From Escherichia coli (GTDB taxonomy: Bacteria > Pseudomonadota > Gammaproteobacteria > Enterobacterales > Enterobacteriaceae), in assembly GCF_051903065.1 (NCBI RefSeq), contig NZ_CP178438.1: 64,000 nt of DNA, one strand, 5' to 3'. The translations under genes were made by a program, and so were the position numbers. Shown one piece after another: positions 3,387 to 33,006 of this stretch. The notes beneath the pieces are model-generated. The model searched no databases. It saw nothing but the letters and a program-made list of their open reading frames with translations, and was not told the origin of the DNA. The number at the start of each line of letters is the position of its first letter. Positions within the stretch are counted from its first letter, which is position 1.

Positions 3387-4172
3387 TTAGCGCACTAAAT
3401 AACCGCCATCAACCACTAATAAATGCCCGTTGACATAATTCGATGCCGGACTTGCGAGGAATACGGCTGCGCCCATTAAATCCTGAGTATCGCCCCAACG
3501 GTTTGCTGGAATATGATCAAGAACGCGCTGATTGGTTTCTGGATTACTGCGTGTCGCCAGCGTAATATCTGTTGCATAATAGCCAGGGGCGATACCATTT
3601 ACCTGAATATTATATTGACCTAGTTCATCACAATAAGCTTTGGTGAACCCGGCAAGAGCATGTTTAGTGGCAGAATATGCAGGTGACCATTGTCCACCTA
3701 AGTAAGAGAACAATGAACAGATATTAATGATTTTACCGCTTTTCTGCGGGATCATAATTTTTGCTGCTTCGTAGCTTAACTCAAATGCGGCGGTCAGGTT
3801 CACATCAATCATTGGATCCCAGTCGGCACGACCGAAGTCCAGCACCTTATTCAGCTTACAAATACCGGCATTGTTAACCAGAATATCGACGGTACCGAAA
3901 CGTTCGCAACAGGCGGCGATTATCTTCTGCGGCGCGCCTTCTGCGGTGATATCCACCTGCATGAAGTCCACCTCAACACCCTGTTTTTCAATCATTTCCT
4001 TTGTTTCGCCGTTATCTTTGACAAAACTTGGAATAAAGACATTTGCGCCTGCTTTGGCCAACGCCATGGCAAATGCCTGGCCTAAACCGCTATTCCCGCC
4101 GGTAACAATTGCGGTTTTACCTTTCAGGGAGAAAAAATCCATTGAGAACGCATTGAGAGATTCGATTGACAT
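3387..4172 (-). CDS. ygcW: Short-chain dehydrogenase/reductase (SDR) family oxidoreductase
   Basis: TGGNSGLG Rossmann motif and YxxxK catalytic motif (YSATK); start placed at MSIESLNAF (4172) instead of the longer ORF-track start. Confidence 0.85.
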   Translation of the reverse strand: MSIESLNAFSMDFFSLKGKTAIVTGGNSGLGQAFAMALAKAGANVFIPSFVKDNGETKEMIEKQGVEVDFMQVDITAEGAPQKIIAACCERFGTVDILVNNAGICKLNKVLDFGRADWDPMIDVNLTAAFELSYEAAKIMIPQKSGKIINICSLFSYLGGQWSPAYSATKHALAGFTKAYCDELGQYNIQVNGIAPGYYATDITLATRSNPETNQRVLDHIPANRWGDTQDLMGAAVFLASPASNYVNGHLLVVDGGYLVR

Positions 4173-28473: not shown

Positions 28474-29826
28474 TTATTGCCCCGCGACAGGTTTCAGCTC
28501 GATACGCTTGATATCGCCCACCAGCACCAGGTAGCTCAGTACCGCGATTAAGGCATGAACACCAACATAAATCAGCGCCCCATTAAAGGAGCCAGTCGTG
28601 CCAACGATATAACCAATTGCGATTGGCGTGACGATGCCAGAAATGTTACCGAACATGTTGAACAGGCCACCGGAAAGACCGCTGATCTCTTTTGGCGCGG
28701 TATCTGCCATTACTGCCCAACCCAGCGCCCCAATGCCCTTACCGAAGAAGGCCAGCGCCATAAAGCCGATGATCATCCACTCAACGTTGACGTAGTTGCA
28801 GAACACCATCACCATCGACAGCAACATGCCCATTACGATCGGTGTTTTACGCGCAATGTTCAGCGATCCCGTGCGGCGCATCAGCCAGTCGGAAATAATC
28901 CCACCCAGCACACCGCCGATAAAACCGCAAACCGCCGGAACGGAAGCCACAAAGCCCGCTTTCAGAATCGACATCCCACGCGCCTGCACCAGATAAACCG
29001 GAAACCAGGTAATGAAAAAGTAAGTCAGGGCGTTGATACAGTACTGACCGATATAAACGCCGATCATCATCCGTGACCCGAGCAGCTGTTTGATCTGCCC
29101 CCACTTCACGCTGAACGGCACTTTAACTTTGGTGTTTTGCTGATCCATATTGATCAGCGCGCCACCCGCGGCGATGTACTCCAGCTCTTTCTGATTTACC
29201 CCCGGATGTTGATTTGGCTCGTGGATGACTTTCAACCAGATAAAGCTGATGACAATCCCCAGACCGCCCATAAAGAAGAAGACGTGTGACCAGCCCACTT
29301 CATGCGTCAGCCAGCCCATAATCGGCGCGAAGATCACCGTTGCGAAGTATTGAGCGGAGTTAAAAATCGACACCGCCGTTCCCCTTTCCTGCGCCGGAAA
29401 CCAGGCCGCAACAATGCGACTGTTGCCGGGGAAAGATGGCGCTTCAGCAAGCCCGACCAGGAAGCGCAGCGTAAACAGGGCAACGATAATGCCGAATCCA
29501 CTAAAGATATCGACGAAGCCTTGCAGCAAGGTAAACATCGACCAGATAAAGATCGACCAGAAGTAGACGCGTTTTGAACCAAAACGATCCAGCAACCAAC
29601 CACCAGGGATCTGCCCGATAACATAAGCCCATGAGAAGGCAGAGAACACATAACCCATTCCCACGGGATCAAGGCCGATATCTTTGGCCATTTCCGAACC
29701 GGCAATAGAAAGCGTAGCGCGGTCGCCGTAGTTGAAGGATGTGACGATAAACAACATCACCACTATCCAGTAACGAGCATTCGTGCGTTTTTCCACACTG
29801 CTCGCAGCCTGACTTAAAGAACTCAT
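28474..29826 (-). CDS. gudP: Glucarate/galactarate MFS transporter
   Basis: 450-aa MFS permease; stop abuts the gudX start. Confidence 0.92.
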
Positions 29827-30151
29827 TGTTGCACTCCTGAAAATTCGCGTTAGCCACGCTCACTCTGGACTGCGACATCGCCAGGAAATCAGAGGTGACG
29901 TAGGGTGTTTTTTGCCGTTTTTATAGGTTGTTCGCCGAATACGGCGCGTGTTTATATCTGGCAATAGCAGTATAAAAAGCGCGCCATAGCGGCTCACCGT
30001 GCAACAACACAACATTAATGCGTTCAATGAGGCCCGATTTTGGCATTAGCCCTGGACGGTGGAATCCACTTCACGGAAATGAAAACAAGAACAAGAAAGG
30101 AAGGGTTAAAACGAAGAAATAAAGAAGAGTATGAAATGGATCGCTTGACTC

Positions 30152-30207
30152 CAGGCAAACGCCAGTAAAAATCCGCGCTATGAAGCAGTTTTTACTGGCA
30201 TTTGCCT
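30152..30207 (-). terminator. Long stem-loop downstream of yqcA (probable terminator)
   Basis: About 19-bp inverted repeat aggcaaacgccagtaaaaa ... tttttactggcatttgcct with an 18-nt loop, about 55 bp past the yqcA stop. Confidence 0.5.
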
Positions 30208-30260
30208 GAAAAGATTCGATTCAGCACCGCTAAAACGACATTTACCGCTCGCTGAACATA

Positions 30261-30710
30261 TCAGGACAACAGCGTGCCCCACTGTTCGACCCACGGATTT
30301 GATTCCGTTTCCGGTTCCGGGTTCTCACTGGCGTCAATCAACAGCATTTCGCCAACCCGCTGAGCGCTCTGTTCCTGCAACAAGGCATCGAACTGTTTGC
30401 CGCCATTGCAGAAATTCACATAACTACTGTCGCCGAGCGCAATCACGCCATAACGCAGATTCGGCTGGAAGCCCAGACTATCTTTGATTCCCTGAAAGAG
30501 CGGCACAATGCTATCAGGAAGGTCGCCCTGCCCGGTCGTGGACGTAACCACCAGAACATACTTATCCTGATAGGGCAGCCAGTCGCTTAATTCAGGATCT
30601 TCAAATACCGTTGCTTTGTGGCCCTGTGCGGTCAGAATTGCTTCTGCTTCTTCCGCCACTAACAGCGAATTTCCGTACATGGTGCCGACAAAAATACCAA
30701 TTTCCGCCAT
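30261..30710 (-). CDS. yqcA: Flavodoxin-like protein
   Basis: 149 aa, [26 protein letters not shown]... flavodoxin fold. Confidence 0.9.
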
Positions 30711-30727
30711 ACCGTTTTCTCCCTGGA

Positions 30728-31510
30728 TTAGGAACTTATCTCTCCATCCTGACCTGATGGCGCACTGAACTCAACCCTTTCATTTTCAGGAAGCAGACCG
30801 CGCCAGCCAAATTGTGATAACGCCTGCATCCAGGTGTCGTCCAGGCCCGCGTGAATAGTCAGCGGCTCGCCAGTAAAAGGATGCGTCAATGACAACTGAC
30901 TGGCATGCAGCATTAACCGCTGAAGACCAAAATGCTCAGCACCGCTGCGATTCTGGCGTAAATCGCCATGTTTGCTATCGCCAATAATCGGATGACGCAA
31001 ATGGGCAAGATGTCGGCGAAGCTGATGTTTGCGTCCGGTTTTCGGCTCCAGTTCCACCAGGCCGTAGCGCGTGGTCGGGTAACGTCCGGTCGCTACCGGC
31101 ATTTCTACGGTCGCCAGACCGCGATAATGCGTCACTGCTGGCTGCGGGCCTTTATCTTCGCGGGCAAATTTATCAGCGATTTTGTCCAGTTCTTCCACCA
31201 GTGGATAATCCAGCACCGCTTCTTCCATCAACCAGCCGCGCACAATCGCATGGTAACGTTTCTGGATTTGGTGCTGTTCAAACTGTTGTGCCAGCAGCCG
31301 TCCGGCCTCGCTGGATAATCCCATCAACAACACACCAGAAGTTGGTCGGTCCAGACGATGAGCAGTAAAAACATGCTGTCCTATCTGGTCACGCACGGTT
31401 TGCATGACCACTACTTTCTCGTCGCGATCCAGCCAGCTGCGGTGAACCAGCCAGCCGGAGGGTTTATTTACCGCAACCAGCCATTCATCCTGATAGAGTA
31501 TTTCCAGCAT
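30728..31510 (-). CDS. truC: tRNA pseudouridine(65) synthase
   Basis: 260 aa; RluA-family catalytic motif [13 protein letters not shown]. Confidence 0.93.
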
Positions 31511-31839
31511 TAGCTCGCATCATCCGCAAAAAGAGCATCCAGTTTTTCCAACTCAGCCAGAATAAGCGCGCGTTGCGGATGGTCCGTCGCCAGCGCCATT
31601 TCATAATAGGGAGCAACGGCAAAAGCGCCCGGTAACGGCTGGTTGTTATTTAACAAATCGTGCATTCGCGGGATCAGCACCCACTGCAACCACTCCAGTG
31701 GTTCCATGGTGTCCATAAAGAACGGTTGGGTACTATTAAATTGATGCGGCTGGGGTACATCGTTTCGCCAGTGCTGATGTTCACGCAGTAACGCTTCAAG
31801 CGCCTGCAACTGGAGACGAACGCGGTCATGAGTGGTCAT
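31510..31839 (-). CDS. yqcC: DUF446-family protein
   Basis: 109-aa ORF whose stop overlaps the truC start (TAATG). Confidence 0.85.
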   Translation of the reverse strand: MTTHDRVRLQLQALEALLREHQHWRNDVPQPHQFNSTQPFFMDTMEPLEWLQWVLIPRMHDLLNNNQPLPGAFAVAPYYEMALATDHPQRALILAELEKLDALFADDAS

Positions 31840-31882
31840 AAAGCAACCTCAATAAGAAAAACTGCCGCGAAGGATAGCAGGA

Positions 31883-32250
31883 ATAAAAAAAGGGAGCACT
31901 GTATTCACAGTGCTCCCGGTTCGTTTCGCAGCATTCCAGCTACATTTGTTGCTCCCTGCTCATCCTTGACAACTTTTCCTCTGGCCTTGCGGCCAATCGT
32001 TCATCCTGAACTATTGCTTCCTGCTCACACCACCCCGATGTGATACTTCATCCTGAAGTGTCCCTGGCCTTCCTGACCCACCGAATCATCCTGACCGGTT
32101 CTCATTCTCCATCCTGGAGGTGTCCTTTAACGCGTCCTGCGTCATCCTCTTCGCTTCATCCAGAAGCCTTTCCCTGAAACACCATCCTGGTGTGTCCTTC
32201 AGAAGTGTCATCATCCTGATGTTCACTTCGTTGTCTGACTCCCTGTCGAC
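31883..32250 (-). ncRNA. csrB: CsrB small RNA (CsrA-sequestering)
   Basis: About 368 nt on the minus strand with many CAGGATG / AGGATG motifs (seen as catcctg on the plus strand) and a 3' terminator hairpin gggagcactg...cagtgctccc plus T-run; matches the csrB sequence as I recall it. Confidence 0.95.
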
Positions 32251-32423
32251 GAAGATAGAATCGTCTTTTTCGCGAAGTCTTACAAGGCGCTTACAGACAA
32301 TGCCTTAAGGAAAATTTCATATGAAAGTTAGGAATTAACAAGCAACATGTTGTTTTTAAATGAAAATAACGATTCTTATCTTTTTAAGTATTCGCTTATT
32401 TCCTGGCGATCTCCTACAGAGTC

Positions 32424-32441
32424 TGTAAGAGATCTCTCACA
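32424..32441. promoter_or_regulatory. UvrY (BarA/UvrY) binding palindrome upstream of csrB
   Basis: 18-bp near-perfect palindrome tgtaagagatctctcaca about 175 bp upstream of the csrB 5' end. Confidence 0.7.
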
Positions 32442-32460
32442 ACCAGATGGGGTATTTGGA

Positions 32461-33006
32461 TTACAGAAGAGGCTTAAGTTGATTAAGGAATTCCGCAAGA
32501 TTTGAGGCTAAATGCGTCCGTTTACGTGTTCCCAGCGTCTCTTTACACACTTCACCGGAGAGATTACACACCGAGATGACCTCTAACTCTTCTTCCAGCG
32601 TCGCGATAAATAGCGTGGGTGGCAGTTTTAGCCTTTTCTGAGTCACCAGATGACCAATCAGATTTTCCTGCACCCGACGGAAGTCGTCTTCACTCCAGGT
32701 TTGCAGCAATGTCAGTTTGATATCGCCAAACTGCGCGTGCATATCCCCGGCAAACTGAGTCGTATAAAAGGTATGAATTGTGGGTTGTATCACAATATCA
32801 AAAGCGCGTTCAACCGCGTTTACATTTTGTTCCCCGGTAAACGGCTGGGGTTGCCAGTATACGGCATCTTCAGTAGTTGAAATAATGCACGGTGAAGGAA
32901 CGCCGTACAGTTCCTCACTTAACGGCCAGCTTTTATGCTCTTCATGCCACGCATCGCAGTAGCGTGCAGTAAAATCTTTCAGGGCTTGTGCGGTCAAATC
33001 GTCCAC
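32461..33006 (-). CDS. syd: SecY-interacting protein Syd
   Basis: 181 aa, [41 protein letters not shown]... Confidence 0.92.

Follow-up and report, generated by a model that had tools for sequence, protein, structure and literature searches.

A long stem-loop between yqcA and gudP of Escherichia coli as the probable, Rho-backed 3′ end of the yqcA operon

What is the role of the unusually long stem-loop that separates yqcA from gudP in Escherichia coli? The hairpin lies in a 64-kb stretch of E. coli DNA (64,000 nt, here called the window), within a 434-bp yqcA-gudP spacer that carries no annotation in the K-12 RefSeq record. It was originally predicted, from the sequence itself, to be an inverted repeat of roughly 19 bp that could act as a bidirectional terminator insulating the gud operon or as a structured RNA element. 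All neighbouring genes (gudP, yqcA, truC, yqcC, the gene for CsrB RNA and syd) are located on the minus strand. The predicted placement between yqcA and the gudP upstream region is correct, with the stem positioned 52 nt beyond the yqcA stop codon at 30261 and gudP starting at 29826 (Table 1). Literature searches found no paper that deals with yqcA and gudP together, or with gudT and a small RNA together. The explanation favoured here, to which we assign a probability of about 0.6, is that the hairpin represents the 3′-end-defining, exonuclease-blocking stem-loop of the yqcA operon, backed by Rho.

The hairpin is identical to that of K-12, and across the whole intergenic region the two sequences differ at one base (29929), which is outside the hairpin. 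Over these 434 bp, K-12 MG1655 coordinates are obtained by adding 2892274 to the window coordinates. A repeat search recovered the predicted inverted repeat as two arms of 20 nt each with a gap of 17 nt between them, which is the longest hairpin in the 64-kb window among inverted repeats with arms no more than 40 nt apart. In RNA of the yqcA (minus) strand, the arms form a stem of 20 bp without interruption, including one G·U pair; in plus-strand RNA this position is a C·A mismatch. Basal pairing of 30149-30151 with 30209-30211 lengthens the minus-strand stem to 23 bp. RNA folding, which had been proposed as a check of the prediction, showed that the 57-mer is far more stable than shuffled sequences on both strands, with folding energies of -36.8 kcal/mol (z -9.0) for the minus strand and -30.2 kcal/mol (z -7.9) for the plus strand, and none of the 200 shuffles was as good in either case. 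The A/T-runs that were described on both sides of the repeat do exist, but they are found inside the stem, where A5 (30167-30171) and T5 (30189-30193) border the loop, and not outside it. Outside the stem there is a single run, AAAA (30209-30212), corresponding to UUUU ahead of the stem on the yqcA strand.

Table 1. Positions of the hairpin and of associated features in the window (position 1 is the first letter of the 64,000-nt stretch)
Feature	Position	Strand	Source or remark
gudP	28474-29826	-	start at 29826
Reported Rho termination region, 18 nt before the gudP ATG	29844	-	PMC7815308; coarse, 800-nt windows
Second conserved gudP-upstream motif, minus-strand TTTCATTTCCGTGAAG	30069-30084	.	
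C/U-rich, G-poor tract, candidate rut (Rho-loading) region	30069-30143	-	base composition
Invariant motif adjoining the hairpin, minus-strand GTCAAGCGATCCATTTCATACTC; TCAAGnGA-N5-TTTCAnAnT in all genera	30127-30149	.	
Published RNA 3′ ends	30143-30149	-	PMC10667835, supplementary tables 3, 4 and 7
Additional pairing with 30209-30211 at the stem base (G·U, A-U, G·U; 23 bp in total)	30149-30151	-	
Hairpin 3′ arm, UUUUUACUGGCGUUUGCCUG; Escherichia has GUUUGCCUG where other genera have the U-tract GUUUUCAU	30152-30171	-	
17-nt loop region; four pairs (CUGC/GCGG) form an apical mini-stem with one bulged A and a loop of 8 nt	30172-30188	-	MFE structure
Hairpin 5′ arm (in the sense of the yqcA transcript), CAGGCAAAUGCCAGUAAAAA	30189-30208	-	repeat search, folding
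yqcA (flavodoxin) CDS, last gene of the unit ending at the hairpin	30261-30710	-	

With respect to the features of intrinsic terminators, the locus has a G+C-rich stem-loop directly downstream of a gene, with an atypically long stem and a 17-nt loop. A T-run 3′ of the stem is absent from both strands: minus-strand RNA continues past the stem with GAGUCAAGC, in which one base of nine is U, and plus-strand RNA with AAAAGAUUC, and neither tail has at least 4-5 U in the 8 nt directly 3′ of the stem. The terminator scan did not flag the E. coli hairpin on either strand. E. coli RNA polymerase terminates poorly at hairpins lacking a U-tract, and the E. coli hairpin alone is probably a weak terminator.

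RNA 3′ ends at this locus have been published in a SEnd-seq study of the wild type and of pnp, rnb and rnr mutants, the mutant libraries being single replicates (Liu et al. 2023, PMC10667835). The original prediction had been made to depend on transcript 3′ ends mapping here, and minus-strand ends do map to the foot of the stem. Of the ends in the wild type, 49% are listed at K-12 position 2922422 (window 30148), an end missing from the RNase II mutant (0), and 10.7% at 2922423 (window 30149), an end missing from the PNPase mutant (0) (PMC10667835). In the RNase II mutant, an end at 2922417 (window 30143) is paired with 2922422, which equals a trim of 5 nt, and a transcription-unit boundary is called at 2922421 (window 30147) for the unit 'csrB syd truC yqcA yqcC' (PMC10667835). 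The wild-type ends are located 1 nt beyond the 23-bp stem, and the mutant end 9 nt beyond the 20-bp core. The published SEnd-seq operon table also places CsrB in this complex transcription unit that ends at the hairpin; in the window, the CsrB RNA (Rfam RF00018, 384 bits) is encoded between syd and yqcC (31882-32241, minus strand). Among the curated Term-seq 3′ ends of Adams et al. 2021 (PMC7815308), none falls at 29221xx-29225xx. Hence, not every dataset shows the end at the hairpin prominently; expression of yqcA is weak, and the Term-seq list is thresholded.

The same ends could be generated by a self-sufficient intrinsic terminator that lacks a U-tract, with release about 9 nt past the stem (30143), trimming of 5 nt by RNase II, and Rho acting only on a separate gudP leader. 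The mutant end at 30143 speaks against the favoured explanation, because its position 9 nt past the core stem, within the range of 7-9 nt past a stem, is the distance expected of hairpin-driven termination. The 5-nt trim is like that of dozens of terminators in the published table, where most other entries for RNase II resemble ordinary intrinsic terminators (PMC10667835); a transcription-unit boundary is called at 2922421, and the orthologues of the hairpin are canonical terminators. However, the tail of the E. coli hairpin contains a single U and escaped the terminator scan, and poor termination without a U-tract is established knowledge for the E. coli polymerase. Moreover, the loss of the 2922423 end in the PNPase mutant points to trimming from longer precursors, and bicyclomycin brings the downstream reads to 80% of the upstream ones, so that a self-sufficient terminator, although the main alternative, is the less likely of the two.

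The sequence beyond the hairpin has a distinctive composition. On the yqcA strand, the 60 nt past the hairpin (30084-30143) contain 27% C, 7% G and 82% pyrimidine (C/G 4.0), which is the composition expected of a Rho-loading region and makes this segment a candidate for one. C exceeds G downstream of the hairpin in 22 of 22 species, with ratios ranging from 16:3 in Escherichia to 14:13 in one Raoultella. A Rho termination region has been reported on the minus strand at K-12 position 2922118 (Rho score 3.98, p 9e-8; PMC7815308 supplementary file 2). In the 800-nt windows of this one experiment, the reads downstream and upstream were 23/114 in untreated cells and 90/112 with bicyclomycin (PMC7815308), which raised the downstream/upstream ratio from 0.20 to 0.80, equivalent to 4-fold more read-through into gudP. 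The gudP promoter's own leader could be the source of the extra gudP reads under bicyclomycin instead of read-through from yqcA. Given the missing U-tract and the read-through into gudP raised by bicyclomycin, insulation of gud seems to depend largely on Rho. Hence, the proposal of a terminator insulating gud has survived in part: the hairpin is a 3′-end element of the yqcA operon that adjoins the gudP upstream region, but the absence of a U-tract and the bicyclomycin effect are at odds with a simple intrinsic terminator.

According to the mechanism favoured here, the hairpin would be the 3′-terminal stem-loop of minus-strand transcripts running through yqcC-truC-yqcA. RNA polymerase would mostly run on past it into the untranslated C-rich, G-poor tract, Rho would terminate transcription in that tract, ahead of gudP, and PNPase together with RNase II would then trim the tail in the 3′-to-5′ direction to the foot of the hairpin, leaving the mature end at 30148/30149. 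In this scheme Rho, and not the hairpin, would release most polymerases, the read-through transcripts would come from the yqcA unit, and the gudP promoter would thereby be shielded from upstream transcription. The lack of a U-tract, the dependence of the ends on PNPase and RNase II, the C-rich tract and the effect of bicyclomycin all fit Rho termination followed by trimming to a protective hairpin.

RNase III requires a duplex of roughly two helical turns, and the minus-strand stem of 20-23 bp without interruption is long enough for the hairpin to be a candidate RNase III processing site, which would control the stability of yqcA mRNA. Such a role would be compatible with Rho termination and trimming to the hairpin, but we regard it as unlikely, since the mature 3′ end, which requires exonucleases, is found at the base of a stem that is still intact, implying that the stem survives in vivo.

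The origin of the hairpin was analyzed by comparing 80 yqcA loci from different species. Homologous hairpins are present in Escherichia species, in part of Citrobacter, in Salmonella enterica subsp. arizonae and diarizonae, and further in Superficieibacter, Silvania, Kosakonia, Phytobacter and Raoultella. Most genera other than Escherichia have a separate G+C-rich yqcA terminator right past the stop codon, and there the hairpin follows about 100 nt beyond. The copies outside Escherichia consist of an apical G+C stem between an A-run and a U-run, followed by GUUUUCA, and the orthologues from Raoultella, C. koseri and Salmonella carry tails of U4-U6. Between genera the apical stem can be fully different (CCUUUC/GAAAGG in Citrobacter, CCACU/AGUGG in Raoultella) with complementarity kept, and one stem position covaries, being C-G in 9, A-U in 7, U-A in 3 and U·G in 2 cases (29 sequences). 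The covariation score of 0.157 compares with 0.126 in shuffles, none of the 500 of which reach it, and with 0.057-0.102 in slid controls.

The basal 8 bp of the stem are specific to Escherichia. In this genus GUUUUCAUAG has been replaced by GUUUGCCUGG, and the latter forms base pairs with CAGGCAAA, a conserved sequence upstream; at the site of the U-tract, E. coli has GTTTGCCTGG versus GTTTTCATAG in Citrobacter. The conversion of the U-tract into a segment that pairs with this upstream sequence made the stem longer (20-23 bp) and removed the U-tail. The E. coli hairpin descends from a conserved intrinsic terminator of the A-tract/hairpin/U-tract type that borders the gudP regulatory region on its upstream side; in the Escherichia lineage the U-tract of this terminator was replaced (Table 1), so that the stem grew as the U-tail was lost.

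The hairpin is absent where gudP does not follow yqcA, for example in E. albertii, and wherever the two genes are adjacent, some stem-loop separates yqcA from the gudP control region. Two loci (L033 and L043) lack the hairpin and retain the invariant motif, and in these yqcA's own terminator adjoins the motif. In Enterobacter and in the C. freundii group, a REP-like palindrome is found in place of both the hairpin and the invariant motif. These REP-like palindromes (GTAGGCCGGGTAAGGCG...CGCCACCCGGCAA) occur in the first 100 nt past yqcA in loci L037-L041 (Enterobacter) and L011, L012 and L017 (Citrobacter freundii group).

In E. coli itself, only one of 5426 complete genomes lacks the hairpin, and of the 5425 that carry it, all except two do so with at least 95% identity; the hairpin is a single-copy element, with a median of one place per genome (5425 genomes), and within the window the arms match only each other, with no further copies. 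A dispersed repeat or mobile element was rejected on the grounds that the hairpin is single-copy and that the matches on plasmids are mislabelled chromosomes. A DNA-level element, such as a palindromic protein-binding site, a cruciform or the remnant of a mobile inverted repeat, would be in keeping with several properties of the locus: an imperfect outer extension to inverted arms of 35 nt (30137-30171 and 30189-30223, 77% complementarity), the near-palindrome GGCAAAYGCC within each arm, and the adjoining invariant DNA motifs with fixed spacing. But the apical stem varies and yet stays complementary, with one position covarying, which fits selection on pairing of RNA or single strands; together with the one copy per genome and the RNA 3′ ends at the stem foot, this makes a DNA-level function scarcely credible.

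The symmetry of the A5 and T5 runs about the loop raises the question of whether the hairpin also stops plus-strand transcripts, such as a transcript diverging from the region of the gudP promoter, and in this way shields yqcA from antisense transcription. The Citrobacter sp. MGH106 orthologue is terminator-like on both strands in the terminator scan, the Phytobacter copy has a U-run solely on the plus-strand side, and the E. coli plus strand shows a weak promoter-like match at 30145-30172. However, no annotated plus-strand gene reads into the hairpin, as the flanking genes are all on the minus strand, and the only plus-strand open reading frame (30040-30168) is unconserved and interrupted in one Escherichia lineage. 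The plus-strand stem contains the C·A mismatch and is followed by AAAAGAUU. All 3′ ends in the tables of PMC10667835 are from the minus strand at this hairpin; these data are thresholded, and the absence of plus-strand ends from them is weak evidence. With no converging plus-strand gene, no plus-strand 3′ end in the tables and no plus-strand U-tract, the bidirectional terminator of the original prediction was not upheld, and we consider such a function highly improbable.

Several coding and promoter candidates around the hairpin were also rejected. The 42-codon open reading frame 30040-30168 on the plus strand, whose stop codon falls within the hairpin arm, appears in the RefSeq annotation of some E. 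coli genomes as a hypothetical protein (WP_001296328.1). The frame is interrupted by a stop in one lineage of Escherichia, its middle part is unconserved, and its richness in Lys, Arg and Glu results from the purine-rich complement of the C/U-rich opposite strand; it is almost certainly not a gene. A small protein encoded across the hairpin or the conserved block described below was dismissed for either strand: two closely related Citrobacter have the ATG of the loop in different frames, lineages of Escherichia carry in-frame stops, and for the two sites that look synonymous the probability of falling at third codon positions was one in three. A mini-ORF of five codons before the hairpin on the plus strand (ATGAAATGGATCGCTTGA) has a stop at codon 3 in L005, and the same in L004, and just 1 nt separates its Shine-Dalgarno sequence from the start. 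Finally, a plus-strand sigma-70 promoter that would use the invariant TTGAC has a -10 region that is unconserved across genera.

The hairpin borders a region with conserved DNA architecture. Two motifs upstream of gudP, one of which adjoins the hairpin (Table 1), are separated by 56-57 nt in 22 of 22 species, and the sequence of the spacer between them is unconserved. Fixed spacing combined with a free spacer sequence indicates an architecture at the DNA level, and the gudP control region thus has the hairpin at its upstream boundary. Transcription factors of the CdaR-dependent gudP promoter probably bind at the two motifs. A comparison of the gudP upstream region with the garP-garD intergenic region for shared CdaR-type motifs revealed nothing beyond chance 8-mers. 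In other genera, the TCAAGnGA-N5-TTTCAnAnT motif reads as a CRP-like TGTGA-N6-TCGCT on the plus strand. Closer to gudP, the minus strand carries the hexamer TATACT, a good -10-like match, at about 29960-29975; its -35 is poor and the conserved TTGCACGGTGAG precedes it, a combination consistent with an activator-dependent gudP promoter. The presumed gudP leader/promoter further contains a 5-bp G+C hairpin at 29933-29946, which is terminator-like on the plus strand, and the reported Rho termination region (window 29844) falls inside the presumed leader.

On the yqcA side of the hairpin, a conserved 16-nt block was found, ACTGAATCG(A/T)GT(T/A)AGC followed by GGCA(A/T)(A/T)TGCC, with variable flanks. 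It is nearly invariant in Citrobacter, Salmonella, Silvania, Kosakonia, Phytobacter and Superficieibacter and degenerate in E. coli (window 30213-30232); in loci L009 and L024 it is located at 3530-3560 and 3540-3570, respectively. The block has no conserved open reading frame, no Rfam match and no consistent promoter. Its near invariance across six genera between variable flanks, the position of yqcA's own terminator about 100 nt upstream in those genera, which makes the second hairpin look like a separate unit, and the -10-like hexamers 5-8 nt before the block in several genera could indicate a small RNA. The hairpin and the block (ACUGAAUCG(A/U)GU(U/A)AGC...GGCAAAUGCC) would then form a conserved unannotated sRNA, or a stable 3′-UTR-derived RNA, of Enterobacteriaceae, whose E. 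coli copy is degenerate and now only the 3′ end of yqcA, which we judge to be very unlikely. That the hairpin ends an unannotated sRNA or stable 3′-UTR fragment of about 70-80 nt starting at ACUGAAUCG(A/U)GU(U/A)AGC is a similarly improbable version.

Against both versions, Rfam 15 searched at E up to 1 with window positions 29000-33000 and with five orthologous loci matched only CsrB, and thus gave no match to this element in E. coli or five other genera. The -35/-10 pair is not consistent, and the block is degenerate in E. coli itself. Furthermore, the SEnd-seq tables (PMC10667835) contain no 5′ end at 29225xx, and the sRNA tables derived from RIL-seq hold only a 'yqcA CDS' node, with no intergenic or 3′-UTR node. 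The E. coli copy also lacks the U-tail needed for Hfq binding. The suggestion of a structured RNA element, in the sense of a riboswitch or sRNA, has therefore found no backing in Rfam or in an Hfq-network node for the intergenic region. A second small hairpin, common to Salmonella and Citrobacter, is located between the yqcA terminator and the conserved block (at about 3470-3500 in L024 and L025 and about 3470-3495 in L009 and L023). It has a GCCAG-containing loop and compensatory changes in the stem (CTGCTTA/TAAGCAG, TTTGCTTGC/GTAAGCAAA and CTTGC/GCAAG), and a conserved AACGAC comes after it.

Assignment of the hairpin to the 3′ end of yqcA transcripts gives the yqcC-truC-yqcA unit a defined terminus in a 434-bp region that is empty in the K-12 RefSeq record, and exposes the 42-codon open reading frame annotated in this spacer of some genomes as spurious; beyond annotation, it matters little. 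A minor evolutionary point is that extension of the stem can cost a canonical terminator its U-tract, with the work seemingly shifted to Rho and exonuclease trimming. If this is true, Escherichia and Citrobacter provide a clean natural pair for testing the contribution of the U-tract in vivo. The 16-nt block and the motifs with fixed spacing may also help to define the poorly described, CdaR-dependent control region of gudP.

The hairpin is an ordinary element of a known kind. Rho-dependent terminators with transcripts trimmed to a protective stem-loop were reported by Dar & Sorek (2018, NAR 46:6797), as cited by Adams et al. 2021. Like members of this class, the yqcA hairpin is a stable stem-loop without a U-tract, has a PNPase/RNase II-dependent end at its foot, and is followed by C-rich, G-poor untranslated RNA and bicyclomycin-sensitive read-through. 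It differs from them in its unusually long stem (20-23 bp) and in its derivation from a canonical terminator that survives in sister genera, and the evidence for Rho at this hairpin is of low resolution and not tied to yqcA-derived transcripts.

With canonical intrinsic terminators it shares the position directly after the last gene of an operon, ends a few nt past the stem, the 5-nt trim by RNase II, and orthologues in Citrobacter, Salmonella and Raoultella that have both a hairpin and a U-tract. In contrast to such terminators, the E. coli element has no U-tract, a loop of 17 nt (8 nt if the 4-bp apical stem is formed) and a stem that exceeds the usual length two- to threefold.

Terminators of the bidirectional intrinsic type were reportedly described by Ju, Li and Liu in Nat Microbiol in 2019. 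The A-run and U-run placed symmetrically about the hairpin, and the Citrobacter orthologue that scores on both strands, are reminiscent of this group, whereas the locus has no convergent gene pair, no plus-strand 3′ end was found in the tables, and the A/U runs of E. coli are buried in the stem. Like the REP/BIME stabilisers of 3′ ends, the hairpin would be an intergenic stem-loop that blocks 3′ exonucleases, and its place is taken by a REP-like palindrome in both Enterobacter and the C. freundii group; unlike REP/BIME palindromes, the hairpin is present in a single copy, has no REP consensus and belongs to no dispersed family.
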